Positions 30,701 to 46,142 of a DNA stretch of 64,000 nucleotides are shown here, one piece after another. This DNA is from Candidatus Parcubacteria bacterium (lineage in GTDB: Bacteria; Patescibacteriota; Minisyncoccia; Phycocordibacterales; Zambryskibacteraceae), in assembly GCA_019661785.1 (NCBI GenBank), contig JAIFWP010000002.1:39059-103058 (forward strand), in the 5' to 3' direction. Positions within the stretch are counted from its first letter, which is position 1. Every line of letters begins with the position of its first letter. Made by a program: the position numbers and the translations under genes. The notes under the pieces are model-generated. The model was not told where the DNA came from and ran no database searches. It worked only from the letters and a program-made list of their open reading frames with translations.

Positions 30701-30951
30701 ACTATCTTCTTAAAATTTATCTTCGTTTCAAGCCTCGCTTGGGAGAGTACCTTCGCTTCCTCTAGCTTGATGCTGTTCCTCTTAGTTGGGCTCGTTTTTA
30801 TCCGCAGAGTGTCATTCTTCACACTTATGTCTTCAAGCCTTATGTCGAGCCCTGTAGCGTCTTTGACGCACCTAGCCACAATCTCCCTCGTCTCCACATC
30901 TCGCCCGAGTGAGCGCTTAAAGCGATTTAGGAGATTATCGAGCCCTTCCAT
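30694..30951 (-). CDS. DUF721/DciA-like protein downstream of dnaN
   Basis: An 85-aa protein. IVARCVKDATGLDIRLEDISVKNDTLRIKTSPTKRNSIKLEEAKVL resembles the DciA core, and the position after dnaN is typical. Confidence 0.4.
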   Translation of the reverse strand: MEGLDNLLNRFKRSLGRDVETREIVARCVKDATGLDIRLEDISVKNDTLRIKTSPTKRNSIKLEEAKVLSQARLETKINFKKIVY

Positions 30952-32051
30952 TAGCGATTCATCGGCATGAGTAGGTAGCGGAAGCTCTTATCCCCTACGC
31001 CTTCGACGAGTATGGGTTTGCCTTCTCCGGCAAAGGAGAGCGCGAGGCTATCCGATGGAGTTGAGCCGAATCCGTCGGTCAGGTATCTATGGTTAACGCT
31101 CACAGCAAGCTCCCCGCCTTCAAGCGCAGCAGGGACCAGGTAGGTGTTCTCCCCAACGTTTTGGTTCTTAGACTCTATCTCGAATTGATTCTTCTTTGGA
31201 GCTAGAGAGAGCTTCAGCTGGTTGAAATTATCGGTGAAGACGAGTGCAGTCTTGAGTGAGGTTATGAGGTCCTGCTTTAGGACTATGGCTTTAGCCACGC
31301 TCACACTCGGGATAATCTGTTTATAGTCTGGGAAGGTGCCGTCAATAGTCCTTGAGGTTATGTATATGTTCTCCGAGCGCAGAGCTATCTGGTTGTCCTC
31401 GATAGTGATGGATACATCGGTGTCCAGACCGTCTAGAATCCTTATAATCTCGACGGCGTTCTTCTGCGGGATGAGGATTTGGGTGAAGTTAGGAATCTTC
31501 TTCACCTTGACCTTCTTCTCCGCAAGGCGGAAGGAGTCCGTAGCGACGAAGACAAGACTCTCGGCATCGTGCAAGAGACAAATCGACGATAATTCCGGCT
31601 TCACACTGCCCGTAGCTGCCGCGTAGATGACCGCACGAAGCCCTTGGACGAGATCTTTGGCCGGTAATGAGAAGTTGCTCCCTCCCCCTATCTCCGGGAT
31701 GATAGGGAACTCCTCAGGAGGCAAGGTCATAACTTTGGAGTGGACGCTCGGGGTGTCGAGAGAGAGCGTCTGGCCGTCTGAAGATAGGGTGATGTTCTTC
31801 TCTCGGGTGAGCGACCCGAGGAGAGAGGAAAATACTTGTGCTGGCACCACCAAGTGTCCCTCCTCAAGCACCTTCACAGGCAGATGGATAGATATGCCGA
31901 GGTCTAGATTCGTGGCTCTCACGGTGAGTATGGCGCCAAGAGCCTCAAGTGAGAGGCCTGATAGCACAGGCAAGGTTGGGTTCCTTTGAGCAACCTTCTC
32001 CGCTCTCTGGATGGCTTCCACAATCTTCTCCCTAATTGCTTCTATTTTCAT
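30951..32051 (-). CDS. dnaN: DNA polymerase III beta sliding clamp
   Basis: A 366-aa protein with the three-domain clamp layout, positioned immediately downstream of dnaA. Confidence 0.85.
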   Translation of the reverse strand: MKIEAIREKIVEAIQRAEKVAQRNPTLPVLSGLSLEALGAILTVRATNLDLGISIHLPVKVLEEGHLVVPAQVFSSLLGSLTREKNITLSSDGQTLSLDTPSVHSKVMTLPPEEFPIIPEIGGGSNFSLPAKDLVQGLRAVIYAAATGSVKPELSSICLLHDAESLVFVATDSFRLAEKKVKVKKIPNFTQILIPQKNAVEIIRILDGLDTDVSITIEDNQIALRSENIYITSRTIDGTFPDYKQIIPSVSVAKAIVLKQDLITSLKTALVFTDNFNQLKLSLAPKKNQFEIESKNQNVGENTYLVPAALEGGELAVSVNHRYLTDGFGSTPSDSLALSFAGEGKPILVEGVGDKSFRYLLMPMNR

Positions 32052-33677: not shown

Positions 33678-33812
33678 ATGTCTACAACATACCAACCAAA
33701 GAAGCGCAAGAGAGCCCGCTCGCACGGGTGGAGGAAACGAGCCGTATCTAGCGGTGGACGCCGCACGGTCGTCGCTCGCCGCCGCAAGGGGCGCAAGCGC
33801 TTGACTGTCTAA
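33678..33812 (+). CDS. rpmH: 50S ribosomal protein L34
   Basis: A 44-aa ORF, MSTTYQPKKRKRARSHGWRKRAVSSGGRRTVVARRRKGRKRLTV, that falls below the ORF-track length cutoff. It occupies the classic position before rnpA. Confidence 0.8.
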   Translation: MSTTYQPKKRKRARSHGWRKRAVSSGGRRTVVARRRKGRKRLTV

Positions 33813-34144
33813 TGCTTTCGAGGGGTAACAGGATTCCTAGGAGACTCTTCTCCCCCATACTCTCGAGTCGGAGCTTCAAAAACTCGCTTCATTTCACTCT
33901 TCGCATAGGAGAGTCCAGCGTTAATGTGCCCAGAATCGCAGTTTCCGTGTCTAAAAAGGTCGCTAAGGGCGCCGTAGAGAGAAATACGCTCCGTCGGAGG
34001 GTCTACGCAGTCTTAAAAGACGAAATCAGAGGACTTAAGGCGGGCCTCTATCTCTTCGTGGCGAAAAGAGGAGCCTCTGGCATGAAGGGCGAAGCGCTCA
34101 AGAAAGAGGTGCTAGAGCTTCTCAATTCAGTTCAAAGGGCATAA
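33812..34144 (+). CDS. rnpA: Ribonuclease P protein component
   Basis: Carries the RNR-like motif SKKVAKGAVERNTLRRRV. Its start overlaps the rpmH stop (TAATG). Confidence 0.75.
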   Translation: MLSRGNRIPRRLFSPILSSRSFKNSLHFTLRIGESSVNVPRIAVSVSKKVAKGAVERNTLRRRVYAVLKDEIRGLKAGLYLFVAKRGASGMKGEALKKEVLELLNSVQRA

Positions 34145-34154
34145 GATTAGTCTC

Positions 34155-34868
34155 ATGTCGTATTTGTACCACCACTTCCTTGTTGCTCCGATATATAACG
34201 TATTGGTCTGGCTTCTCAATGTACTCCCCTTCTCCGATGCGGGGCTCGCTATCATCATCATCACAATCCTCGTCCGCCTTATCCTATTCCCGCTTTCGAA
34301 GAAGGCCGTGACCGCTCAAGTGGAAATGCAAAGAATAGCTCCCGAGCTTGAGAATATAAAAACCAAGTACCAGGATGACCAGGAGGAGCAGGCCAGAAGA
34401 ACCTTGGCTTTGTATAAAGAGAGAGGAGTGAACCCCTTCTCCGGCATTCTTGTGCTCGTGATACAGCTCCCAGTCATCTTCGCTCTTTACAGAATCTTTT
34501 TGTACACCGGTTTTCCGAAGATAGACTCGACCATGCTCTATACCTTCATCCATGTGCCAGCACAGGTGAGCTCAGTCTTCCTTGGGCTAGACCTGACAGA
34601 GAAGAGCGCTATCCTTGCTTTGCTCGCGGCTGTTGCCACTTTCTTCCAGATACGCTTGGCTACAGTTAATCTGCCAAAGAAGAGCGGCAAGTCTTCGTTC
34701 GGAGATGATCTCGCAAAGAATATGCAAGCTCAGATGAAATACTTTCTCCCGGTGCTTGTCTTCTTCATCGCTTATAAGATTTCAGGAGTCATTGCTCTCT
34801 ACTGGCTTACCACAAACCTATTTACCATCGGCCAAGAGATAGTCGTGCGAAGGAAGCTTAAGGTATGA
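34155..34868 (+). CDS. yidC: Membrane protein insertase YidC (short Oxa1-like form)
   Basis: A 237-aa protein with 5 TM helices and conserved YidC core helices. It occupies the rnpA-yidC position. Confidence 0.7.
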   Translation: MSYLYHHFLVAPIYNVLVWLLNVLPFSDAGLAIIIITILVRLILFPLSKKAVTAQVEMQRIAPELENIKTKYQDDQEEQARRTLALYKERGVNPFSGILVLVIQLPVIFALYRIFLYTGFPKIDSTMLYTFIHVPAQVSSVFLGLDLTEKSAILALLAAVATFFQIRLATVNLPKKSGKSSFGDDLAKNMQAQMKYFLPVLVFFIAYKISGVIALYWLTTNLFTIGQEIVVRRKLKV

Positions 34869-36084
34869 GCTTAAGAGCCCAGAGGGAGAGGTCGGATTTA
34901 TTTATAAAGAAGAGGTAATCCTCGCTAGGGCTTAGGAACGGCTTCTCTACATCTATGTCGGTATGGAAGTCAGTGCTTGGGTCCGCTAAAACATCTGTCG
35001 AGTTTGTTGTCACATCTATCCTCCACACTCTATCGGCGAAGCTAGTTAGGCCCTTGTACCACAAGTCAGGCTGACCACTTGGGAATCCGCCGCTCGGCGC
35101 GCCGCAGTAGACAGTGGAGGAGGACTTCACGCTCCAGGCGCACTTCTCTGGCAAGGTGTTTGGGAATAAGGTGGTCGAAGCTTTCGATGAGAGGTTCAAT
35201 ATAGAAAACGTGTTCGACCCATCACTCTCGTAGGCAAAGAGCGCCCGCTTGCCGTCTGGGGAGAGGTTTGCAGTGAGTCCTAGGAGAGGGCCAAGTACCT
35301 TTGTCATAGCGCCGGTCGAGAGATTCAAGGTATAAGCATATCCTAGGGCTTGCTCGGAGGCCTTGGTATAAATGAGAGCCGTTGAGGCATTTACAGGCAC
35401 AAGGCGCCAGTTAGTGAACGGCATCGTGAAAAGGGTTTTGGGCTTCTCCCCGAGGAAGCTAGACAGGGCTAGAGCGCCTGTGTCATCGAGGACATACAAG
35501 AGATTGCCGTTAGGCATCACGGCAAGTTCGTCCACGCTGCCGCGGAGCAAGGTTGCTGTCTCGGTGTATAAGTTTGATGTAGAGGTGGACTTCGGGGCTA
35601 TAAGAGTGATAGATGCGTTCTTCACTACATCATGCCCCTCGTCGAGTGAGCGAGCCACAAAGCCGGATGCATCGCCTTTCCACAGCGCCTCATATACCTT
35701 TGGTATAGTCGTGTTCGCTATCTGCTGCTTCTCAAGAGTGGCAAGGTTTATTTCAAGTACATGTCCTGTGGCGCGGTCGACGTAGCGCACAAACGTGAGG
35801 CCGTTCTTCGCAAAGCTCACGCTGCCTGCTACCGGGGCGTCCGAGAGTTTGAAGAGCTTGGCCAGAGGCTTGCCATCTGCTCCCAAGCCGGTTTGTGTCC
35901 CATCGTCATCATTTGAACCATCATTTGTCACAGGATTGCTAGAGCCATCAGGAGATGTGCCGAATGGCAGACTATTGATGATAGTCGATACGACTGGGGA
36001 CTTGCCGCCCAAGAGGAAGTACAAGACAGCCGTACCGGCAATGAGGACTAGAGGTATAGAAATGAATAGGGCTCGTCGGGACAT
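34858..36084 (-). CDS. Membrane-anchored PD40/TolB-like beta-propeller protein (last gene of T4SS-like operon)
   Basis: An N-terminal TM segment followed by repeated PD40-like motifs (SPDGKRALFAYESDGS, MPNGNLLYVLDD). Confidence 0.45.
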   Translation of the reverse strand: MSRRALFISIPLVLIAGTAVLYFLLGGKSPVVSTIINSLPFGTSPDGSSNPVTNDGSNDDDGTQTGLGADGKPLAKLFKLSDAPVAGSVSFAKNGLTFVRYVDRATGHVLEINLATLEKQQIANTTIPKVYEALWKGDASGFVARSLDEGHDVVKNASITLIAPKSTSTSNLYTETATLLRGSVDELAVMPNGNLLYVLDDTGALALSSFLGEKPKTLFTMPFTNWRLVPVNASTALIYTKASEQALGYAYTLNLSTGAMTKVLGPLLGLTANLSPDGKRALFAYESDGSNTFSILNLSSKASTTLFPNTLPEKCAWSVKSSSTVYCGAPSGGFPSGQPDLWYKGLTSFADRVWRIDVTTNSTDVLADPSTDFHTDIDVEKPFLSPSEDYLFFINKSDLSLWALKLIP

Positions 36085-36085
36085 G

Positions 36086-36988
36086 TTAGATTCTTACTCT
36101 TATGCCTTCAGGGATATTGCCGAAGCAAGTGAATTTGCTTTTGTAGCTCGCCAGCTTGGCGCTAGTCATAAATGAGTTATAACGAGAGCTATTGCAAATG
36201 AGGTGATATTGAAAGTCGACATTGCCTGTGACCTGAAGGTCTCTTAGGAATCTTGCTACCTGAGTCTCAGTCGTATCTGGCGTAAGGCTAATGTCAATAC
36301 AGCTTCCAGCTTGAGACAAGTCTTTTGTGTTACAAACAGTCAATGGCGTTGTAGATGTGGCAAAAGGAAAGGCCGCGCTTATCTCCCATGGGACGGCCAC
36401 ATACTCTCCTTTGGCATCGTCTATCGCGTCACGGACAACACTCACTTTAGACCAGAAGGCCAAGAGCCGATCATTCAAGGTTTTCTGTACGTAACACGGG
36501 TTATTGGTGCAGGCGTTTGAGTCTATCGGGATTATCGCTGCGATGGGCACGCAATTATTGGTGCAGCCTAATTCGGCCGCAGTTTTAGTTGCTAGGCTTC
36601 CCTTGATTGCCTGGCCTTGCTTGACTGGCTGCAGGGCAAACTGGATATTAACTAGGCCTGGATTCACTGTATTAAGTATCGTGTAGGCGCTTATGGCCAA
36701 AAGCAGCCCGATGAGAGCGTTTTGTATAGTCTCTTTGGCGGAGGATTTGCCGCTGAAGGCATCTGTCGACATGTACTGTATGCCGCCAATGATAATGCGT
36801 ATGACTGCCAATCCGCCAGCGATAGCGATGATGAGCTTTATCATGGCCGGGATGTACGTGCTCACATCTATAGAGCCGACTATGTCCCCGCCTTTTCCTA
36901 GGGGAAGTTTTTCAAGGAGGGTGTAATCAGCCGCGTGGAGATGTGTGATAAGGAAGGAGAGCATGTTAGAAGCTGTTCTGCTTGCCAA
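36086..36988 (-). CDS. VirB2/TrbC-like pilin fused to a Cys-rich C-terminal domain
   Basis: The N-terminal ~115 aa form two hydrophobic helices (MIKLIIAIAGGLAVIRIIIGGIQYM...ALIGLLLAISAYTILNTVNP), as in TrbC/VirB2 pilins. A 180-aa domain with 12 Cys follows. Confidence 0.4.
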   Translation of the reverse strand: MASRTASNMLSFLITHLHAADYTLLEKLPLGKGGDIVGSIDVSTYIPAMIKLIIAIAGGLAVIRIIIGGIQYMSTDAFSGKSSAKETIQNALIGLLLAISAYTILNTVNPGLVNIQFALQPVKQGQAIKGSLATKTAAELGCTNNCVPIAAIIPIDSNACTNNPCYVQKTLNDRLLAFWSKVSVVRDAIDDAKGEYVAVPWEISAAFPFATSTTPLTVCNTKDLSQAGSCIDISLTPDTTETQVARFLRDLQVTGNVDFQYHLICNSSRYNSFMTSAKLASYKSKFTCFGNIPEGIRVRI

Positions 36989-37712
36989 ATTGTACCAGGA
37001 AACTCTTGTCGAGCGGCTGCACGAGGGCAGATTTGTTCCTTGCCTCCACTGTTACCCTAGAGCTGCCGCTCGAGTTGTCTGGTATGCGGTAGGTGACCTT
37101 GTTGCCTGAGCGGTCGTCGCTCCCGCTTGCGAGCCATCGGTATGTCTCAGCCGGAGCAGTGCGGCTTGATACGCCAGAGAAGAACGGTAGGGCTGAGAAG
37201 GAGACCTCTTGTCCGCCGAGGTCGAAGCTTTCCCCTATGGCACGGTGAAGCATGAGCCCATAGAGAGGGCTATCTTCAACAACTAGAGTCTCTGAGGTCG
37301 TTGGGATGAGGCTCACCGAAGCGCTGCCTACATCTGTTTGTCCGTCTGGCAACGTGACGTCGACTCGAACTTCGGTTGGGAGAGAGAGGACAGAGTCATT
37401 CCATGAGAGGGTCCTCCTCCCTGCTCCAGAGCTGTTGCCGAGCACGGTACCGCCTTGAGTCCATTTATATATAAGAGCGTTGGGGTTAGTGTTTCCGCTC
37501 ACCACAGCCACCAAAGTTATCCTGGTCTGGTGCCCCCATAAAGCACGTCCAAGGTAGAAGGGAGGAGTGTAAGTCTCTCCTTGCCAGAGGATGTCCACCT
37601 TGGTTGGCGCTGGCAGAGTCTGTGCGGATGCTCCCACTGGCAGAATCAAAGTCAAAAAAAAGAGATGAGGGAGCAGAGCTCTTCGAAATGTCATCTGTCT
37701 ATTATATACCAA
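36966..37712 (-). CDS. Secreted hypothetical protein (signal peptide) in T4SS-like operon
   Basis: A 248-aa protein with an N-terminal signal peptide (LTLILPVGASAQ), a beta-rich sequence, and no known family. Confidence 0.4.
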   Translation of the reverse strand: MVYNRQMTFRRALLPHLFFLTLILPVGASAQTLPAPTKVDILWQGETYTPPFYLGRALWGHQTRITLVAVVSGNTNPNALIYKWTQGGTVLGNSSGAGRRTLSWNDSVLSLPTEVRVDVTLPDGQTDVGSASVSLIPTTSETLVVEDSPLYGLMLHRAIGESFDLGGQEVSFSALPFFSGVSSRTAPAETYRWLASGSDDRSGNKVTYRIPDNSSGSSRVTVEARNKSALVQPLDKSFLVQFGKQNSF

Positions 37713-38067
37713 CAGTTTTCTTGATTTTGTAGTCTAGGGCTATCCGAGCGATAAGACCGGTCCAGACAGGAAGATCGCCCAAGAATGGGATTAATTTTAT
37801 GACGACACTGGCGCCGATTAGCTTGCCCCTTCTTGCTGTGAAGAAGTCGAGACCCTTCAGTTTGAACCAAAGCCAGAAAGTAAAGATAGCCACTGGCGGT
37901 ACAAGCAGCCATCCGAGGAAGATAAAATCCAAAAGAGCTTGCATTGCGTCGAAAAACAAAGCCACAGCTATCATGAAAGCAATAGTTTTGTTGTCGAGCT
38001 CGGGCTGTTTTTTGGACTCAGGCTCTGTTGGCGGTTGCGGTGCTTGTTGCTGTGGTTGCGGCGGCAT
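37702..38067 (-). CDS. Small 3-TM membrane protein with Pro/Gln-rich N-terminus, immediately downstream of VirB4
   Basis: A 121-aa ORF. It overlaps the VirB4 stop by 50 nt. Confidence 0.35.
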   Translation of the reverse strand: MPPQPQQQAPQPPTEPESKKQPELDNKTIAFMIAVALFFDAMQALLDFIFLGWLLVPPVAIFTFWLWFKLKGLDFFTARRGKLIGASVVIKLIPFLGDLPVWTGLIARIALDYKIKKTVGI

Positions 38068-39889
38068 TTGGTTCCTTAGACTCCTCTAATTCTAACTTGG
38101 CTTTCTTCATGGCGAGGACCTGGCCTGGGTCTGAGGTGATGATCTGGTCCTCGGTATAGCTTGCAATGACCTTAATGGCCACATGCTTCAATCCGGCAAA
38201 GAAGATACCCTCCCCCACATCAGACTCGAGGAGGAGATACTTCTCTTCGTCGGTGAGGTTAAAGGTCTTCTGCAAGTTGTCGATAGTGGTCGGCGACTGC
38301 TTCAGGAGTATTTGGATGGAGGAGTTTGTGATGATAGGCAGACCATAAGGCGATTTCAAGAAGTCGCCTACGTCTTGAGTGATGGTGGCGACGCCCAAGT
38401 AGTACTTGCGTCCGCGCTTCACGAGGCCGGTGAGGAAGCTCGCTGTGTCGTCCGACTTCATCATCCACCAGGCCTCGTCGATGACGAGGAGGCGCTTCTT
38501 CAGCTCTCTTCTCACGGCATTCCAGATGAAGTGGGTGACGATGTACATGGCTATGGGCTTCAACTCATCTTCCATATCGCGGAGCGAGAAGACAACGAGC
38601 TTCTTCGATATGTCGACATTTGTCGGTCTGTTTATGAATCCTGACCAAGTGCCCTTGGTGTACTTTGTAAGGCGTTGGGCTAAGGACTCCCCTCCCTCAA
38701 GGCCGGTGAGCACGAGCTCGAAGTCGCTCATGAGAGGCGGCTCTATAGAGCGGAAGTCAGAGTCGGCAGTGATGTCTTTAAGAGCATAGGTCTCAGTGAT
38801 GGCGCGGTCGATGAGAGCATCTTCCTCGGCGGTGAGTCCGCCCATCATGAGGCGGAAGAGGCCCACGAGGTTAATGATGTTCGAGCGCAAGACATTTGCC
38901 GGGTCTTCGTCTGCTACTGGTATCGGAAGGTCGAAGGGGTTGATGTGGTGCTCGGAGTTTAAGGAAATCTTGAAGTACCTGCCGCCCACGACCTCGGCCA
39001 TGTACTCGTACTCGTTTTCTGGGTCCATAATCATGACATCTGTGTCGAACATGAGTGTTCTCAAGATTTCGAGCTTGGTGAGGTAGCTCTTGCCGGCACC
39101 GGACTTAGCAAAGGTGACGGAGTTGTAGTTCTCAAGACTGAATCGGTCGAAGAGCACGAGCGAGGAGTTGTGCCTGTTCACTCCGTAGAGGATGCCCTTG
39201 TCGCTCGTGAGGTCAAAGGAGGTGAATGGGAAGAGCGAAGAGAGCGGTGATGAATTTAACTTCTGGTGCACGCCCAGGAGGTCGTCACCAAGTGGCAGAG
39301 TCGACTTGTAGCCCTGCTCTTGTTGGAAGAGAGCCGGCTTCACATAGACGAGCTTGGCCTCGAGGATGCCCTTGATCTCGTTCTCGATTTTGTCGAGCTC
39401 AAGCTCGGAGTCGGCGTAGATAGTTATATAGAGCCCAACGTCGAAGAGCTTTTCCTGTGCTTGCTGGAGCTGGTCGCGCAAGTTCTCCAGGTCTTGGTAG
39501 GCCACATCGAGCATTGGATCGCGCACTAAGCCCTTGTCCTCTCTCTCGTGAATCTGCGATTCTACCTCGGCCACCTTCTTTTGGAACTGGTGCAGTATCT
39601 TAGACGTCTCGATAGGATGCACGAAGATAGCCACGTCGAAGACCTTGTCCATATTGAGTACCGGCGAGAACCACTCTTCGGAGAGGAAGCGCGGATAAGA
39701 GATGACGAAGAAGCTCCTAAGTATCTTCTCACCCAGGTCGAGTCCTCGGGGAGAGATTTTCAATGCTGAGGGGGCGATAATGTCTTTCAATTCCAATGCT
39801 CCGGCCTGGTAAACCTCAGCTGGCAGGATAGAAGCGAGATTTGGCTTCTCTTCCTTCTTCCTTCCTAATAATGTGTCGAAGAGTCCCAT
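38018..39889 (-). CDS. virB4: VirB4/TraE-family type IV secretion ATPase (Gram-positive type), C-terminal 623-aa part
   Basis: Carries RSFFVISYPRFLSEEW (the TraE/TcpF-type motif), Walker A FAKSGAGKSY, and Walker B LLVIDEAWWMM. Confidence 0.75.
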   Translation of the reverse strand: MGLFDTLLGRKKEEKPNLASILPAEVYQAGALELKDIIAPSALKISPRGLDLGEKILRSFFVISYPRFLSEEWFSPVLNMDKVFDVAIFVHPIETSKILHQFQKKVAEVESQIHEREDKGLVRDPMLDVAYQDLENLRDQLQQAQEKLFDVGLYITIYADSELELDKIENEIKGILEAKLVYVKPALFQQEQGYKSTLPLGDDLLGVHQKLNSSPLSSLFPFTSFDLTSDKGILYGVNRHNSSLVLFDRFSLENYNSVTFAKSGAGKSYLTKLEILRTLMFDTDVMIMDPENEYEYMAEVVGGRYFKISLNSEHHINPFDLPIPVADEDPANVLRSNIINLVGLFRLMMGGLTAEEDALIDRAITETYALKDITADSDFRSIEPPLMSDFELVLTGLEGGESLAQRLTKYTKGTWSGFINRPTNVDISKKLVVFSLRDMEDELKPIAMYIVTHFIWNAVRRELKKRLLVIDEAWWMMKSDDTASFLTGLVKRGRKYYLGVATITQDVGDFLKSPYGLPIITNSSIQILLKQSPTTIDNLQKTFNLTDEEKYLLLESDVGEGIFFAGLKHVAIKVIASYTEDQIITSDPGQVLAMKKAKLELEESKEPNAAATTATSTATANRA

Positions 39890-39890
39890 A

Positions 39891-40532
39891 TTACTTTTTT
39901 ACTAGAGCTTTCTCTGTCTCGCCTGGGTTGAAGGCTTTATAAAACAGCTCTATCACTTCGTCAGTGCCGAGCCTTGCCACTCGTATGCCAGTGCGCACTA
40001 GCCCCTGCTCAACGATAGCCAGGCGTTCCTCGAGCTGGGTACGAGCTTCCTCGAAGCCGGAGGTCTTCTCCCCTGCCTTATCCTTAGAGCTTTTCTTGCC
40101 GAGGAAGGAGGTCAGAGCGCCGACCTTCTCCCCTGAGATGGCACCCGGGTTATAGGAGACTACTACAAAGAAGTTCTTGGTCATAATGTTAGTCGACTCG
40201 GTGAAGCTCCTTATGAACTCTATATACTCCCTGGTCTGGATTTTCATAAGGTCTACTTGCTGCTCCTTCTCCTGCTTCTCAAGGAGAGCGAGATAGGGGC
40301 GGATGTCGAGTTTTCTCGATTGGATGACGATTTGGACCGAGAAGTCGAGCGAATTGAGGAAGTCTTGGAACTGGAGGAGAATAGCGTTCTTCTCATCCTC
40401 GGATTTGAGGGAGAAGTTCAAGGACGAGGCCAAGAGGATGCCTCGCATGCCGCCATCCTTCTCTAAGATGATGCCGTCGCGGACTTCTTTGATAGGAACG
40501 AAAGATTGAGTCGAGCTTGAACTCGGTGCCAT
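39891..40532 (-). CDS. VirB4 N-terminal-domain-like protein (separate ORF)
   Basis: FVPIKEVRDGIILEKDGGMRGILLASSLNFSLKSEDEKNAILLQFQDFLNSL resembles the extreme N-terminus of Gram-positive VirB4/TraE proteins. The ORF ends in a TAA-n-ATG junction with the ATPase ORF. Confidence 0.4.
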   Translation of the reverse strand: MAPSSSSTQSFVPIKEVRDGIILEKDGGMRGILLASSLNFSLKSEDEKNAILLQFQDFLNSLDFSVQIVIQSRKLDIRPYLALLEKQEKEQQVDLMKIQTREYIEFIRSFTESTNIMTKNFFVVVSYNPGAISGEKVGALTSFLGKKSSKDKAGEKTSGFEEARTQLEERLAIVEQGLVRTGIRVARLGTDEVIELFYKAFNPGETEKALVKK

Positions 40533-40539
40533 GAGTAAA

Positions 40540-40977
40540 TTATACAGTATCTTTGGTCTGATCTTTTGTAATGGGGTTCGACTGATTCTTCACATCGAGC
40601 TCGAAGGTGAGGTCACGGAGCTTTGACTGTGACAGCTTGGGCACGTATACCTGGTCGTAAGGTTTGCCGGCCGGATCATCAGCCTTCCCCTTAGTCTCTT
40701 CACTCCGCTTCCATATATATAGTCTGCCGCCCACGTAGTACTTAAAGAAATCTTCAATGATGAGGGCGAAGGGGCGCTCGTTGACCTTGAAGAAGGCTAG
40801 GGCCAAGCCTAGACCGGCTACAGGCAGGGAGAGGATGATGGCTATGAACTTGGGCAAAAGGGTGAAGAGGACCGCGCACAAGCCCGCCGCTCCGGCGAGG
40901 TAGACGAACTGCTTGAAGGTCAAAGGGCCGAATATCTTGTCCTCCACCTCAATGTATTGTGGTACTTGGAAGCGCAT
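40540..40977 (-). CDS. PrgI-like (VirB3-analogue) small membrane protein
   Basis: MRFQVPQYIEVEDKIFGPLTFKQFVYLAGAAG followed by two TM helices matches the PrgI-family N-terminal signature. Confidence 0.45.
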   Translation of the reverse strand: MRFQVPQYIEVEDKIFGPLTFKQFVYLAGAAGLCAVLFTLLPKFIAIILSLPVAGLGLALAFFKVNERPFALIIEDFFKYYVGGRLYIWKRSEETKGKADDPAGKPYDQVYVPKLSQSKLRDLTFELDVKNQSNPITKDQTKDTV

Positions 40978-40978
40978 G

Positions 40979-41620
40979 TTAGTTGGTGGGCTCTCTATAT
41001 GGATCTAAGCCGCCAGGGTACTTCGAACTTTGGCTTGGGCTTGCGACGACCTGGGTCAGTTTCTCTGTTATAAAATCCTTCGGCTTATCGGCCGGCATGC
41101 TTGGCAAGTTGGCGGGAGCAAGAGAGGTCTTTGACGCATTCATCACAGGAGGCTCGAGCTTGAGCTCTTGAGGAGGGGCCTCAAGTGGGATGCGATTTAC
41201 AGAAGGCGCGCTCGCCCCGCTCTGCTCGACGACAACTCTCGGAGCAATCTCCTGTGTAGCCGGCTTAGTATCTGGCATGCTCTGCAAAGTCTCATCGGTT
41301 TTCTGTGCTAATTCAGTCGCTTTGGCTAATATGACTGCAAAGACTTTATCCTCAATCTCTTTGGCAAGGGTCACCGCTTTAGACATATCGATGCCGAGCT
41401 CTCTAGCAATATTAGCTGCGAAGTTATCATCGCTATCGAAGCTATAGATGATGAGCATCGTCTCAGTTTCAAGGCTATCGGCCTTGGCTTCATCCAGCCC
41501 ATTCATTATCGAGATGCCTCGAGTGAGCTTGCGCCAAGGAGTGAGTGAAATGGCTCTCTGCACTGGCTGAGGCAAGGTCTTGAATTGCTCTTGTATTAAC
41601 TTGTCTGTGTCTTGCTCCAT
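40979..41620 (-). CDS. Hypothetical cytoplasmic protein in T4SS-like operon
   Basis: The ORF track starts at 41698 and overlaps the upstream gene. Met27 (41620) is preferred, giving a helical N-terminal half and a Pro/Ala/Ser-rich C-terminal half. Confidence 0.35.
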   Translation of the reverse strand: MEQDTDKLIQEQFKTLPQPVQRAISLTPWRKLTRGISIMNGLDEAKADSLETETMLIIYSFDSDDNFAANIARELGIDMSKAVTLAKEIEDKVFAVILAKATELAQKTDETLQSMPDTKPATQEIAPRVVVEQSGASAPSVNRIPLEAPPQELKLEPPVMNASKTSLAPANLPSMPADKPKDFITEKLTQVVASPSQSSKYPGGLDPYREPTN

Positions 41621-41621
41621 A

Positions 41622-43664
41622 TTATGGCGTTGGTGTTGCTGGCGGCGGCACTCCTCCTCCAGTTGGCGGAGTTGCTGGCGTGGCAGGGGCTCCCGCATCT
41701 TCTGCGGCTTGTCCAGCTTTGTTTAACTCCTCGGCCAATTTGTCAGCTGGCTTCTTATCCTTTGCTTTTTTACGTATAGCTATTGCTCCGGCCAGGTTCT
41801 CTCTCTTTACTGGACCGAATATGAGTACGCGGCCGGTTGTATCAAAGCCCACATATCTGTTGCCCATGCCGAAGGTCTTCTGCTCCTCAATCTCTTTGGC
41901 GTAGGCTTCCGCCCTGCTTCTTTGTGCGCTTTTAACTTCCTCTGGCGCCCAGCCAATTCCTGCTGCCTTGGCCTGATCTTTGGCTTCTTTTTCGCTGAGG
42001 CCAGTTGCCTTGAGCCTCTCCACTTCGCGCGTCCTTTCTGTTTCCAGCCTGTCCATTTCAGCCTTAGAGCCCTTTTTATCAAAGCCGTTTTTAATAAGAT
42101 CTAATTGCTTTCTCTTGCGTGCCTCGTCTTCATTGACTCCCTTGAGATCGTCAACATCCTTCTGGGCAGCGGCTATCCTGATTGCGTTGCCAGTTTGCTT
42201 GGCCGCCTCGAGCTTTTTCTCCGCGTCAGAAATGACGATGTCAGACGGTTTGAAGTTCTCAGCAGCTTGCTCCGCGCCCTTGATCTTGTTCTTCAAGTCA
42301 GCAGCGAAGCCTCCCTTCTGAGCTTTGCCCGCATCAAGCGCTCCGCCAACTGGAGTCGCGCGCAGGTCGAAGCTCGATGCCGCCGTACCTCGGCCCGCAG
42401 CGAGAGTGTACTTAGCAAGCTTGGAGAAGCGAGATGAAGAGACGGCCGTTTTCTTCAGGGCCTCGCTGTCGGCTACTGCTTGACCGAGTCTGCCGACAGT
42501 ACCGCGATTGAAGCGCCCTGCCAGGCCAAGGCTTGTGCCTCCAGCCAGTCCAAGCGCTGCGCCAGTGAGCTTCTTTACCCCGCTTCCCGCTCGCTCGGCC
42601 CAGCTCTTCGAGACGATGAGCGAGACTATGAGGAAGGCGATGATGACTATGAAGTTGAGGAAGGTCGGCACGAGCCCCGCTTCGAAGTGGGCACTCGCTG
42701 CGCCGTTTGCCGCTGTTTTGACGGTTCCTGATAGGGCGGCGCTGAAGTCGCTCGGTGCCCCGTTCAGGTTCGCTTTTGTGATGCCTTGGATGACGACTAT
42801 AGATACCCAAGTGAGGAGGAAGTAGATAGGTGCAAAGAAGGCTTGTCCCAAGAGGGCGTCCCACCACTGTCCGCTATACTTCTTCACTCCGGGCAAAATA
42901 TTAGCGACAAAGGCTATTGGTGAAAGGATGAGGACAAAGATGAGCACGACGTAGCGTATGACGAACATGATACCTATAGCGAAGAAGATAAACGCCGAAA
43001 CTAGAAGGACGATAGAGGCCAGGATGCCCATGATGGAGAAATTTGATATATGCGATAATGCGCCGCCAGAGGCTTGCCAGAGAGTAGTGATACCCATGGG
43101 TTCGACGATAGCGTTTGATATGCCGCTTGAGAGGAAGTCAGCACCGGCACTAGGCGCTATAGCGCGGTAGAAGGTAAGGGCCAGCAGGTTCGATGCGTCG
43201 ATAATGACTTTGGTAAAAAATAGACTGAAGTTTATGAGTATGGCGGCTATAACTGTGCGCACGATAGTCTCGCGATAGTTCCCTTCCCCAAAGATGGTCA
43301 TAATGGCCGTGTAGAGGAGGACGAAGATGAATCCCATGTTGGCCACGTCGCGTATGACTCCCCAGGCCGTGTCGATGGCCGGCAAGTTGGCGAAGTTCTC
43401 CGCCATCTTTGTCACGGTGAAGTAGACTGCGGCATTGAGCGCCACGCCTCCGAGCATGGTGAGGAAGCTAGTTAGCTTCAAGAGCACGAGGACTAGCGGT
43501 GAGAGGATGGTGCCGATGAAGTCGAGCGTGACAAGGCCTGCGGCTTTGGCCCCAATGCTCGCGATGGCATCAGGGATAACGTTCTGGGCATGCGCTACAG
43601 GGACAAATCCAACTATGCTTATGGCGAGGACCAGGGCGGCGATGTATGGGGCGCTCTTTCTCAT
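41622..43664 (-). CDS. VirB6/TrbL-like polytopic membrane protein with long coiled-coil and Pro-rich tail
   Basis: A 680-aa protein with a signal peptide and at least 6 TM helices in its first 370 aa. A ~280-aa Lys/Glu/Ala-rich region follows, ending in PATPATPPTGGGVPPPATPTP. Confidence 0.45.
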   Translation of the reverse strand: MRKSAPYIAALVLAISIVGFVPVAHAQNVIPDAIASIGAKAAGLVTLDFIGTILSPLVLVLLKLTSFLTMLGGVALNAAVYFTVTKMAENFANLPAIDTAWGVIRDVANMGFIFVLLYTAIMTIFGEGNYRETIVRTVIAAILINFSLFFTKVIIDASNLLALTFYRAIAPSAGADFLSSGISNAIVEPMGITTLWQASGGALSHISNFSIMGILASIVLLVSAFIFFAIGIMFVIRYVVLIFVLILSPIAFVANILPGVKKYSGQWWDALLGQAFFAPIYFLLTWVSIVVIQGITKANLNGAPSDFSAALSGTVKTAANGAASAHFEAGLVPTFLNFIVIIAFLIVSLIVSKSWAERAGSGVKKLTGAALGLAGGTSLGLAGRFNRGTVGRLGQAVADSEALKKTAVSSSRFSKLAKYTLAAGRGTAASSFDLRATPVGGALDAGKAQKGGFAADLKNKIKGAEQAAENFKPSDIVISDAEKKLEAAKQTGNAIRIAAAQKDVDDLKGVNEDEARKRKQLDLIKNGFDKKGSKAEMDRLETERTREVERLKATGLSEKEAKDQAKAAGIGWAPEEVKSAQRSRAEAYAKEIEEQKTFGMGNRYVGFDTTGRVLIFGPVKRENLAGAIAIRKKAKDKKPADKLAEELNKAGQAAEDAGAPATPATPPTGGGVPPPATPTP

Positions 43665-45400
43665 GGGTTTGTTTCCTGAGTGCTGTCAGATACCTTAATA
43701 CTGCCGCAAGATACTGTGTCGATTGTATTTTGATCGGCATCTAGGGCTGATACGCTGGCCTTCTTGTCGCCCTCGCTAGTATATTTCAAAGCTAGGGTGT
43801 CAGAAGTAGCGTCGGAGCTGACATCGTCGCCCGACCATACGTACGAGGCGGTAGTGGTCGGTGCAGAGTTCACGGCCCATGTTACGAGAGCATTCGTATT
43901 AACGAAGGTCTTGTCTGGTGAGCAGGACAAGGCGATAGGCTGGCCATCGGGGTTGTTCACAGTGCCAATGCCGCGGTACTGGCACTTCTTTGCTATGCCT
44001 GGTACTGGGTCTCCGCCGAAGGATGAGATAGCGCATTTTACATTATTTTCAGCCGTACCAATATTATAAATACCGTTGGCGCCAAAACGTACCTGTTTTG
44101 TTCCGGGAAATGAGCATGTGCCGCCCTCGCTTGCACAGGTTATCCAGTTCGTGGATCCTTGGCCTTCCACCACGACACCTCTAGTCTGCCCGTAGTATGC
44201 GCATGTCTTAGGCACGACATTAAATTGAGCGGGCAGTTTGACAGCCCCGAAGACATCACTCGAACACTTGGCCCCATCAGTAAGAGTAAGCTCTATGTAA
44301 GTGCCGGCTGCCCCATAGCGCACCTTCTCCTCTCCGTCGAAGACGCACTGCTCGCCTTCCTTGGCGCAAGTAATCCATCCGAATTCAGGCATCTTCAAAG
44401 TAGATGAGTCCGCGCCAGCATTGAAGCTGTCGTTATACTTGCTGCTGAAGAGCCCCTTTGGACCGAAGACGTATCTCTGCAAGAGCCCGCTCGCGAAGGC
44501 TCCTACGAGCTGGTCTACCTGAGTCGCATTGACGAGCTTGTTCATGCCAGTTGGGAGAGTGTCATTGAGCTGCTTGGCGATGACAGAGCCAGGTGTGACA
44601 ACGTCGCCGTAGTCTAAGCAGGTTCCGGCAGGCTTATCGAGGTCGAATTTGCCGTAAGTGAAAGTGACATTCTCCTCTGGGACCACCCCATTCAGATAAT
44701 CCTCTATTACATCATCCGGTATCTTCGGATTCTTAGCCAAGCAGGGCTTGTAGCTTAGGAAGCCGCTGCTTATCTGCCTGTCTGTCTGAGCTAAGCCGAG
44801 CTCGTTCGCGAGCCTCGAGTCGATGTTTGACTTAATGTTGATATAAGAGCCGTATGGGTTGTTGTTGTCTTGCTGGGTCATATCGAACCAGGCTCCCCAT
44901 CCCCCGGCACTGAAGCTCTTGTAGAAGTCGGTAAGGTTCCTCCCTATCTGGTCGAAAGTACATTGGGGCTGGTATTCCTGCACATATTGCTGCACGAGCG
45001 AGAGCTTGATCTGAGCCTGGAAAGGCGAACACACGAAGCCTAAGTTGGAGCCGCTTATCGCGTCCGTAATAACTCCCTCGCCGATTTTGCCGAAGTATCT
45101 TTTCGGATTTGTCACATAGGCTGGGTTGCCCTCGAAGCCGGTATTGGCCCAGGTGATAGTCGACTTGACCATATTGTCGATAATCCTCCTTGCATAGACT
45201 TGCGCGGCGGCGTCGATAAGCCTCTTAGCCAGAGCCGCTACGTCCGTCGTGATAGAGGTGTCGACGATACCGAATATCGCTTGCGCCTTAGGCGCGAAGG
45301 CCGGGGCATAGAAGAAGCTTGCCACTGTGAGCATGAGCAAAGTCCCCAGGATCTTTCCGCTCACTTTTTCTGCAAAGTTTTTTGTAAGTTTAGAGTCCAT
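43661..45400 (-). CDS. Large secreted protein with duplicated 4-Cys ~75-aa modules
   Basis: A 579-aa protein with a signal/TM at its N-terminus. The modules WITCAKEGEQCVFDGEEKVRYGAAGTY...KC...KTCAYYG and WITCASEGGTCSFPGTKQVRFGANGIY...KC...KKCQYRG form a tandem repeat. Confidence 0.4.
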   Translation of the reverse strand: MDSKLTKNFAEKVSGKILGTLLMLTVASFFYAPAFAPKAQAIFGIVDTSITTDVAALAKRLIDAAAQVYARRIIDNMVKSTITWANTGFEGNPAYVTNPKRYFGKIGEGVITDAISGSNLGFVCSPFQAQIKLSLVQQYVQEYQPQCTFDQIGRNLTDFYKSFSAGGWGAWFDMTQQDNNNPYGSYINIKSNIDSRLANELGLAQTDRQISSGFLSYKPCLAKNPKIPDDVIEDYLNGVVPEENVTFTYGKFDLDKPAGTCLDYGDVVTPGSVIAKQLNDTLPTGMNKLVNATQVDQLVGAFASGLLQRYVFGPKGLFSSKYNDSFNAGADSSTLKMPEFGWITCAKEGEQCVFDGEEKVRYGAAGTYIELTLTDGAKCSSDVFGAVKLPAQFNVVPKTCAYYGQTRGVVVEGQGSTNWITCASEGGTCSFPGTKQVRFGANGIYNIGTAENNVKCAISSFGGDPVPGIAKKCQYRGIGTVNNPDGQPIALSCSPDKTFVNTNALVTWAVNSAPTTTASYVWSGDDVSSDATSDTLALKYTSEGDKKASVSALDADQNTIDTVSCGSIKVSDSTQETNP

Positions 45401-46142
45401 GGGCTTTTAAGATATTCCTCATGTCGGCGATGAGCGGGTCCTCTGCCTTGAGGTTCTCGTTGTACTTAGCCATGCCGGCGAAGGCGATTGTGGGATCCTT
45501 GTCTACCTGCGCGAGGGCCTTCAAGGCGGCCGTGTTCGAGAGGTACATGTTGGTGAGCTTCACATGGTCGTCGAGTATCGACGACGGAACAGCCATGCCG
45601 AGGAGCGCCTTGGATGCATGCTCGTACGCGGCGGCGAGCTTCAAAGATATGCCGGAGATGTCAGTGCCAGCGAGGCTCACTGCCGAGCCGCTATCAATCT
45701 TTGCTGCTGTGGCCATAGTCTCGTTCGTTAGGTCTGCCAAGGCATTGCCATAAGCTTTGAAGGCGCTCAAGCTATCGGGCACTATTTTTATGTCCGTAGC
45801 GTTTATAACTTTGGCCTGGGTAAGCGTTGGGAGGCTCTCTACGTACCTTGCCGCAAGGGCATTGATGTTCTCCTCAGTGGTTTGTCCGGTAGCGGCCAAG
45901 TTCATGTAGTCAGAGAGCATTTGTCTGCTGACAAGATCCGTAGTGCTGAGGTCCTCCTGCTTGGCTGGCAGAAGATCTGTAGAGCTTGCGGCCGCATAAG
46001 ATACGGCGGATCCGGAGCTTGGTGCTATGTCTATGGCTACTAGCACTGGAGGAGTCGACGACTCTGACCTGAAGCGGAGGAATCCGGCACCCAAAATGAG
46101 GAGGCCTGATAGGGAAAGAGCGGTCAAGATGCGAAATCGCAT
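45390..46142 (-). CDS. Secreted hypothetical protein, first gene of T4SS-like operon
   Basis: A 250-aa protein with a signal peptide and an alpha-helical sequence. It has no family assignment. Confidence 0.35.
   Translation of the reverse strand: MRFRILTALSLSGLLILGAGFLRFRSESSTPPVLVAIDIAPSSGSAVSYAAASSTDLLPAKQEDLSTTDLVSRQMLSDYMNLAATGQTTEENINALAARYVESLPTLTQAKVINATDIKIVPDSLSAFKAYGNALADLTNETMATAAKIDSGSAVSLAGTDISGISLKLAAAYEHASKALLGMAVPSSILDDHVKLTNMYLSNTAALKALAQVDKDPTIAFAGMAKYNENLKAEDPLIADMRNILKAHGL

Follow-up and report, generated by a model that had tools for sequence, protein, structure and literature searches.

A VirB2-like pilin with a C-terminal, predicted non-catalytic LAS-fold domain in a type IV secretion-like locus of Candidatus Parcubacteria

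Why would a pilin of a type IV secretion system (T4SS) carry a large globular domain, and what would that domain do? This question is raised by a gene in a 64,000-nucleotide stretch of the genome of an ultrasmall Candidatus Parcubacteria bacterium, which belongs to the Paceibacteria within the Patescibacteria (contig JAIFWP010000002.1, positions 39,059 to 103,058; hereinafter, the window, in whose own coordinates all positions are given). The first-pass annotation of the window described the product of this gene as a VirB2/TrbC-like pilin followed by a cysteine-rich domain, perhaps adhesive or enzymatic. The N-terminal part of the protein is supported as a VirB2-like pilin by its sequence family, and the C-terminal part is predicted to be a relative of the peptidoglycan peptidases in the LAS / Hedgehog–DD-peptidase group and to have lost catalytic activity in this particular protein.

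The gene is contained in an uninterrupted open reading frame (ORF) of 300 codons (36086..36988, minus strand). The product is 100% identical to the NCBI protein MBX4198835.1 ('pilin [Candidatus Parcubacteria bacterium]'), a 292-aa sequence that starts at ATG 36964. A single base separates this codon from the stop of the upstream gene (TAA-C-ATG), which makes it the likelier start of the gene; residues are numbered from it here unless the 300-aa form is stated. The alternative start, TTG 36988, would add 8 residues. The choice between the two is ambiguous: the leader that begins at ATG 36964 is 11 aa long and has no charged n-region, and the one that begins at TTG 36988 (MASRTASNMLSFLITHLHA, 19 aa) is more signal-peptide-like and entails a 23-nt overlap with the upstream gene. 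In the homolog alignment, Y14 and L17 are invariant, and the typical signal peptides of homologs stop just before the motif (A)DYxLLxxxP. The leader of the window protein is atypically short compared with the 20-35 aa signal peptides of most homologs; the same short leader is present in one relative, P0005.

Behind the leader, at residues ~34-105, the protein has a hairpin of the kind expected of a VirB2-type pilin, in which a short polar loop lies between two long hydrophobic helices. Hydropathy analysis delineates hydrophobic stretches at ~45-74 and ~87-113 (300-aa numbering), and AlphaFold2 predicts helices at residues 34-66 and 70-100, with a predicted local distance difference test score (pLDDT) of 87-96, connected by a short basic loop (STDAFSGKSSAKE), in agreement with the two-helix N-terminus seen in the first pass. 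Residues 41-99 match the PF18895 (T4SS_pilin) model (E=2e-5, 24.9-25.0 bits), and a match to TrbC (PF04956) was detected at E=0.02. Among 120 full-length members of the family, 118 match PF18895 (best E=2.9e-13) and 38 match TrbC (best E=5.8e-6), so that the pilin homology of the window protein is secure by transitivity; its position three genes away from VirB4 is consistent with the same reading. Against the VirB2 T-pilus chain of Agrobacterium (8cue), the family profile gave a weak match (E=0.19). No other pilin-like ORF was found in the 64-kb window. A Pfam and NCBIfam scan with the window protein alone returned the pilin match and, otherwise, noise (MVD-like_N, E=0.13; ICE_Mbov_0396_TM, E=0.005). 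The latter model, NF045889, matched weakly at residues 37-115 and represents a 306-aa transmembrane protein (Mbov_0396) of a Mycoplasma integrative and conjugative element (ICE), encoded beside the VirB4 of that element (Mbov_0397). Perhaps, as this match hints, the T4SSs of Mollicutes ICEs also have VirB2-like hairpins that are followed by a long C-terminal extension.

The AlphaFold2 model, built from an alignment of 120 sequences and having a mean pLDDT of 84.5, includes a compact alpha/beta domain of about 160 residues (~134-292), most of them at pLDDT about 90. The separate, large C-terminal domain of the first-pass annotation, put there at 180 aa, is thus confirmed as a globular unit of slightly smaller size. 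Fold comparisons aligned it with the Sonic hedgehog (Shh) N-domain (score 7.6-7.8), E. coli MepA (7.7, with 133-134 residues aligned), Drosophila Hedgehog (6.6-7.0) and VanX (5.8-6.2) and, with lower scores, LdcB, VanXYg, VanXYc, VanYB, phage L-Ala-D-Glu peptidases and the S. albus DD-peptidase. The predicted structure has the alpha/beta fold of MepA, VanX/VanY and ShhN that characterizes the LAS / Hedgehog–DD-peptidase group. The profile of the 120 relatives matches the Sonic and Indian hedgehog N-domain chains (E=0.0016-0.009), and the family motif VTEayPPtvtHqn.pChqnGtCVD aligns with the Shh segment that holds H141 and D148. The family signature HxxGxCxD, with H-x6-D inside, fits the M15 pattern, HxxGxAxD. 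H141 and D148 are zinc ligands of Shh, and H-x6-D is the defining spacing (PMC6027127). A profile of 15 C-terminal domain sequences produced nothing meaningful when compared with PDB sequences. No Pfam or NCBIfam model matched the C-terminal domain, be it that of the window protein or that of any of the 120 relatives, among which the Pfam M15 and HH_signal models had zero matches. Taken together, the Shh profile match and the fold likeness assign the domain, as predicted from model and sequence, to the LAS / Hedgehog–DD-peptidase peptidoglycan peptidases, as a branch for which there was no earlier family model. No second LAS-like gene was found in the 64-kb window.

The pilin-fused family shares with the known members of this group (MEROPS M15: MepA, VanX, VanY, LdcB, phage L-Ala-D-Glu peptidases and ShhN) the H-x6-D motif, the C-terminal His and the conserved Glu; it differs from them by extra N-terminal cysteine pairs and by its location, almost always, behind a pilin. 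The window protein departs further, having neither of the two zinc-binding histidines nor the conserved Glu residues. Across 160 instances of the domain, six polar positions are nearly invariant: E at profile position 65 (96%), H at 73 (95%), H at 78 (88%), D at 85 (97%), E at 114 (94%) and H at 147 (81%). At least five of the six are kept in 149 of the 160 domains, and the window protein keeps one (Asp224), with A197, P207, N212, D224, H254 and G287 at the respective positions. Instead of the zinc triad H-x(3-6)-D … H, it has N212, D224 and G287, and at the positions of the catalytic general-base Glu and the auxiliary His, it has A197, P207 and H254. Because residues 126-292 contain only one histidine, an H/D/H zinc site is impossible in this domain, which, judging from its residues, is catalytically dead. 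The first-pass proposal of an adhesive or enzymatic domain holds in part: the predicted fold is that of peptidoglycan peptidases, and in the window protein, the loss of catalytic and zinc residues makes a binding or structural role likelier than an enzymatic one.

Could the domain still be an active hydrolase with a non-canonical site, for example Asp224/His254/Glu286 or a cysteine? Asp224 is kept at a zinc-ligand position, a His takes the place of the conserved Glu at 254, and Glu286 adjoins the lost His. Nevertheless, such an activity appears very improbable, given that the LAS zinc site requires two His and one Asp (PMC6027127) and that the domain has one His. Furthermore, its cysteines are accounted for by pairs that co-vary family-wide, and the substitutions are not common to other degenerate relatives, so that no alternative conserved site is evident. 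The product contains eight cysteines (142, 146, 160, 165, 219, 230, 265 and 288 in the 300-aa numbering) rather than the 12 given in the first-pass annotation, whose own quoted peptides also hold only eight. Across the family, C134 co-occurs with C138 (phi 1.0), C152 with C157 (phi 0.84), C211 with C222 (phi 1.0) and C257 with C280 (phi 0.88); the last pair is present in only about 15% of the family. Four disulfides probably stabilise the domain of the window protein.

The window protein is not alone in this loss. The domains of P0002, P0003, P0005 and P0007 are equally degenerate; P0046 and P0177 have two domain copies each, of which one is likewise degenerate. The replacements at the six positions differ among the degenerate members (APNDHG, EDFRNT, VNYDNS, ENRYQR, RSLYR-). 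In neighbour-joining trees, the window protein clusters with P0005, P0003 and P0002, and P0007 is placed elsewhere, which suggests at least two independent losses of the catalytic set, long-branch attraction being a possible contributor to this placement. P0046 (442 aa) and P0177 (496 aa) carry a tandem pair of LAS-like domains behind the pilin, with one copy in each devoid of the conserved residues (QEFDN- and RDQV--). These degenerate copies may represent intermediate stages of divergence from enzyme to binder.

Is the domain, then, a functionless remnant that decays under relaxed selection, such that only the pilin part matters? Five of the six catalytic residues are gone, and the replacement residues differ between degenerate relatives. 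Moreover, among pairs of proteins with 60-70% identity in the pilin domain, identity in the C-terminal domain averages 38.8% between intact members (n=127) and about 25% where at least one member is degenerate (n=40), so that the loss of catalysis goes with faster change of the C-terminal domain. On the other side, the frame is open across all 160 codons, without truncation; AlphaFold2 predicts the LAS fold from the window sequence with confidence; all four cysteine pairs, along with the hydrophobic core positions, are retained; and at least four divergent relatives (P0002, P0003, P0005 and P0007) keep degenerate domains at full length. The persistence of full-length degenerate domains in streamlined candidate phyla radiation (CPR) genomes makes a functionless domain unlikely, and we consider pure decay a doubtful explanation for the window protein.

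The combination of pilin and LAS-like domain is widespread. An exhaustive search with the C-terminal domain profile retrieved at least 953 clusters at 50% identity with E<=1e-3, and 685 with E<=1e-10. With few exceptions, these proteins are about 300 aa long and have the domain as their C-terminal part, and the pilin hairpin is present in 146 of the 158 domain-containing sequences that were examined. We sorted 90 pilin-like ORFs from 79 related loci according to the sequence behind the hairpin. Each locus is from another Patescibacteria genome, and most bear the label Parcubacteria, Paceibacteria, Zambryskibacteria, Nomurabacteria or Wolfebacteria. A LAS-like domain of one of three subtypes, none with a Pfam model, follows the hairpin in 29 ORFs, and another extension in 35; the remaining 26 are bare pilins. 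C-terminal extensions of at least 45 aa are present in 64 of the 90. The first-pass premise of a normal T4SS pilin length of ~100 aa therefore fails for this lineage, and the architecture, which had seemed exceptional in the first pass, is the common state in related loci. The other extensions confirmed by Pfam are VanY (loci L074, L068 and L055), NlpC/P60 (L051 and L053), SLT (L032) and YkuD (L058 and L060), and the homolog P0026 has Peptidase_M15_3 behind the pilin. This variety, together with the LAS-like domains, identifies the pilin position as a modular carrier of wall-active domains. In L026, L045, L044 and L034, the pilin is extended at its C-terminus by about 140-180 aa of cysteine-rich sequence that appears to be repeated and has neither a Pfam match nor the LAS motif; these extensions represent another class of pilin cargo domain. 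Pilin–wall-enzyme fusions are not mentioned in the searchable T4SS and CPR literature, a set that lacks most subscription journals. Taken singly, both the VirB2-like pilins of Patescibacteria and the wall hydrolases of T4SSs have been described; the fusion and the LAS subfamily apparently have not.

The breadth of the family bears on two further explanations. One is that the N-terminal helices are a signal peptide and transmembrane anchor of an unrelated secreted enzyme, as the first-pass annotation allowed for the case that TrbC/VirB2 models gave no match, or that the fusion results from an assembly or frameshift artefact. The PF18895 score of the window protein lies slightly below the gathering threshold, and the C-terminal domain has no Pfam family. 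However, PF18895 and TrbC do match, in the window protein and across the family, the position in the T4SS locus is conserved in 79 genomes, the identical two-domain architecture recurs in hundreds of independent clusters, and NCBI calls the identical protein. Such an explanation is scarcely credible, and we rejected both the artefact and the generic signal peptide with anchor in view of the 953 clusters, the 146 of 158 fused sequences, the 118 of 120 PF18895 matches and the 79 loci.

The other explanation is that the pilin loses the C-terminal domain by cleavage as it matures, leaving a mature pilin of ~100 aa and a LAS-like domain freed extracellularly. C-terminal processing of VirB2/TrbC pilins is established for RP4 and Ti; in RP4 TrbC, C-terminal residues are removed before cyclisation. 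The linker of the window protein is long, flexible and poorly conserved, and would be accessible to proteases; among homologs, it varies between ~20 and 90 aa and is often rich in Gly, Pro and Thr. Homolog linkers nevertheless show no visible conserved cleavage motif, and among the genes of the locus, family scans found neither a TraF-like protein nor a maturation peptidase of another kind. The domain is also almost never free-standing, so tethering seems to matter. Altogether, release by cleavage strikes us as improbable.

The cluster that houses the fusion gene is summarized in Table 1.

Table 1. Parts of the pilin–LAS fusion gene and the surrounding genes in the window
Feature	Coordinates	Strand	Basis or remark
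u250	45390-46142	minus	no assignment
u579	43661-45400	minus	no assignment
680-aa polytopic membrane protein, candidate VirB6 analogue	41622-43664	minus	many hydrophobic segments; homologs in related loci
u239	40979-41698	minus	no assignment
PrgI/VirB3-like	40540-40977	minus	PF12666 PrgI 1.2e-10
TrsD/TraC-like (VirB4 N-terminal domain as its own gene)	39891-40532	minus	NCBIfam VirB4_plasma N-terminal region 3e-12, TrsD 7.5e-5
VirB4-like T4SS ATPase	38018-39889	minus	PF19044 P-loop_TraG 9e-26, AAA_10 3e-11
u121, small polytopic membrane protein between VirB4 and u248	37702-38067	minus	translation; homologs in many loci; no family match
u248, secreted	36966-37712	minus	directly upstream of pilin gene; no family match
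Pilin–LAS fusion gene (292 aa + stop)	36086..36964	minus	ORF listing, identity to MBX4198835.1
Short N-terminal leader MLSFLITHLHA	36932..36964	minus	precedes the conserved mature-end motif (A)DYxLLxxxP
VirB2/TrbC-like pilin hairpin	36650..36865	minus	PF18895 match, AlphaFold2 helices, hydropathy
Linker, ~28 residues	36566..36649	minus	pLDDT 42-60, variable alignment columns 170-235
C-terminal LAS-fold (Hedgehog/DD-peptidase-like) domain, residues 134-292	36089..36565	minus	predicted structure, family profile
u408, membrane-anchored	34858-36084	minus	directly downstream of pilin gene; no family match
yidC and rnpA	33812-34868		
dnaA	32222-33571		
dnaN	30951-32051		

The VirB4, TrsD and PrgI homologs are encoded on the same strand as the pilin gene, which thus belongs to a T4SS gene cluster, and in syntenic homologs of the TrsD/TraC-like gene, the PF26593 TraC-like model was found. 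For the 680-aa protein, neither Pfam nor NCBIfam produced a hidden Markov model match, and we infer its role as the VirB6 analogue. As listed, its ORF overlaps that of u239, a low-complexity, Pro/Gln-rich protein, by 77 nt; the true start of u239 is probably further downstream. PDB sequence searches with u408, u248 and u579 returned nothing significant, the weak matches of u248 (E~0.01) being to a factor-H-binding-protein-like beta region; u248 and u408 also lack Pfam and NCBIfam matches. These two genes flank the pilin gene in both relatives that were examined gene by gene, and their homologs are found in nearly all of the 79 loci (for u248, nearly all of a set of 81); u248 stands directly upstream of the pilin gene in almost every related locus. 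Both are candidate pilin-associated components, such as a chaperone, a tip protein or an adhesin.

Beyond u408 lie yidC, rnpA, dnaA and dnaN, and the T4SS operon begins within about 1.3 kb of dnaA. The cumulative GC-skew minimum, at ~30-32 kb, is beside dnaN and dnaA; together with these neighbours, it indicates a chromosomal locus at the replication origin. The same gene order next to yidC-rnpA-dnaA was observed in the relatives examined, and that of the pilin region recurs in the 79 loci. In one of these (L040, DATGWK010000074.1), labelled 'Candidatus Nanoarchaeia archaeon', u121, u248, the pilin gene and u408 are arranged as in Patescibacteria, and this contig is probably mis-binned; in addition, many third-party annotation entries labelled 'uncultured Candidatus Saccharibacteria' hold a locus of the Paceibacteria type, and these labels look generic. 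Family scans of the genes in the window locus revealed neither a relaxase nor a coupling protein. The locus fits the published organisation of Patescibacteria T4SSs, which are MPF_FATA-like, include VirB2-like pilins, usually lack VirB1 and relaxase, and are often located near dnaA (PMC12102498).

In two published accounts of these systems (Wang et al. 2023, PMC10633639; Quinonero-Coronel et al. 2025, PMC12102498), the Patescibacteria VirB2-like pilins belong to the same PF18895 family and have the same two-helix hairpin as the window protein, and the loci contain an MPF_FATA-like set (VirB4, TrsD, PrgI/VirB3 and a VirB6-like protein) near dnaA, as in the window. The window differs by its single pilin gene and the ~160-aa LAS-fold domain; the pilins of the published loci are small, and those of Saccharimonadia and Microgenomatia are encoded in arrays of 2-11 genes.

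We incline, with modest confidence, to the following reading: the window protein is the sole VirB2-like pilin in the window, part of an origin-proximal T4SS-like machine, and carries a tethered, disulfide-stabilised, non-catalytic LAS module that serves in wall binding, adhesion or scaffolding. After membrane insertion, the two hydrophobic helices would form the usual pilin hairpin, with both ends of the protein facing outward and the short basic loop facing the cytoplasm or the pilus lumen. In VirB2 and TraA, both ends face outward; this topology, the paired cysteines and the wall-enzyme fold all point to an extracytoplasmic C-terminal domain, which the flexible linker would hold outside the cell. 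In family members with an intact H-x6-D…H site, the domain is most likely a pilin-tethered peptidoglycan peptidase, judging by the complete zinc motif and the varied alternative fusions with wall enzymes. Its substrates would be wall peptides at the sites where the T4SS passes through the cell's own wall or touches that of the host, and it would supply the VirB1-type activity that is otherwise missing from these loci. VirB1-like wall hydrolysis is, according to motif content, plausible for the intact members and unlikely for the window protein, in which the domain would now be a non-catalytic module on the pilin; by analogy, wall binding, adhesion or scaffolding is its most likely role.

There are precedents for such a change of function. 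Degenerate LytM domains are found in EnvC and NlpD, which activate amidases, and in SpoIIQ, which is a scaffold of the forespore 'feeding tube' channel. Drosophila Hedgehog is non-catalytic, with H-x6-T, H-x-Y and E177V in place of the catalytic set (PMC6027127). In all four proteins, a peptidoglycan-peptidase fold without metal or catalytic residues is kept for binding or scaffolding, as we suggest for the domain of the window protein, and that of SpoIIQ contributes to a secretion-like channel which connects two cells. The likeness has its limits: LytM (M23) domains belong to a different branch of the LAS group, and none of these proteins is fused to a pilin.

Several observations weigh against the reading that we prefer. 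The start codon is ambiguous, the leader is shorter than signal peptides usually are, and the PF18895 score of the window protein is 1.7 bits under the Pfam gathering cutoff (26.6). The clustering of the conserved residues in space, the disulfide pairing and the membrane topology are all inferred. The faster change of the C-terminal domain in degenerate members fits relaxed constraint, and with it loss of function, no less than it fits a new binding role. Polymerisation of the window pilin is hypothetical, as are the filament and the tip position of the domain proposed in the first pass, and a globular domain of ~18 kDa on each subunit may hinder filament packing. Judged roughly by the geometry of the F-pilus, there would be room for an 18-kDa domain on each subunit only with the domains spread outward on their linkers. 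Finally, monoderm T4SSs of the MPF_FATA type normally lack pili, and a T4SS pilus has yet to be observed in any of the Patescibacteria (PMC12102498, PMC12857230).

These last points lead to a different explanation, namely, that the hairpin never polymerises and is a mere membrane anchor that parks a VirB1-like wall-remodelling domain (here, a wall-binding one) at the T4SS channel. The locus is of the generally pilus-less monoderm MPF_FATA type (PrgI, TrsD and VirB4), and VirB1 homologs are mostly absent from Patescibacteria T4SS loci (PMC12102498). The extensions are wall enzymes of many kinds, as expected of VirB1 substitutes, and the weak NCBIfam match to the Mycoplasma ICE protein encoded beside VirB4 agrees with an anchor. 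Gram-positive T4SSs likewise employ membrane-anchored wall hydrolases, namely, PrgK of pCF10, TraG of pIP501 and CwlT of ICEBs1, which are encoded in the T4SS loci and needed for wall crossing (PMC12102498). Intact pilin–LAS proteins could fill the VirB1-type role of these hydrolases, although PrgK, TraG and CwlT combine SLT/muramidase with CHAP/NlpC-P60 domains behind a single transmembrane anchor, instead of a VirB2-like hairpin, and the window copy, unlike VirB1-type hydrolases, is predicted to be inactive. Against a mere anchor stands the homology of the hairpin to true pilins (PF18895 and TrbC). Moreover, bare pilins occupy the same locus position in 26 of the 90 syntenic ORFs, which indicates that the ancestral role of this position is that of a pilin rather than an enzyme anchor. 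We take the anchor explanation seriously while considering it rather unlikely; it overlaps with the preferred one and differs from it solely with respect to polymerisation.

At the opposite end, the Paceibacteria T4SS pilin could be a modular 'tool holder', with every pilin bearing a wall-active domain, so that the subunits make up a lytic or wall-gripping filament that acts on the wall of the host. Such a filament would breach or clamp the host cell wall during epibiotic attachment, and the window protein would mark a switch from a cutting subunit to a gripping, lectin-like one. To our knowledge, an enzyme-decorated conjugative-type pilus is not known in any bacterium, and we give this bolder version only a small chance of being correct.

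The family-level pattern is of more interest than the single degenerate copy. In the large class Paceibacteria, a domain apparently active on peptidoglycan is, as a rule, attached to the single T4SS pilin, and in some lineages it has become non-catalytic. This pattern corrects the assumption that VirB2-type pilins are always ~100 aa long and delineates a large LAS-fold subfamily for which Pfam has no model. Patescibacteria, which depend on host cells, account for much of the diversity of bacteria. The one member of the group that is genetically tractable requires the T4SS and its pilins to grow on the host (PMC10633639). Wall enzymes borne by pilins would explain the apparent absence of VirB1 homologs from these loci, and pilin-borne wall domains in general offer a testable hypothesis for how the T4SS of these bacteria may handle their own cell wall or that of the host.

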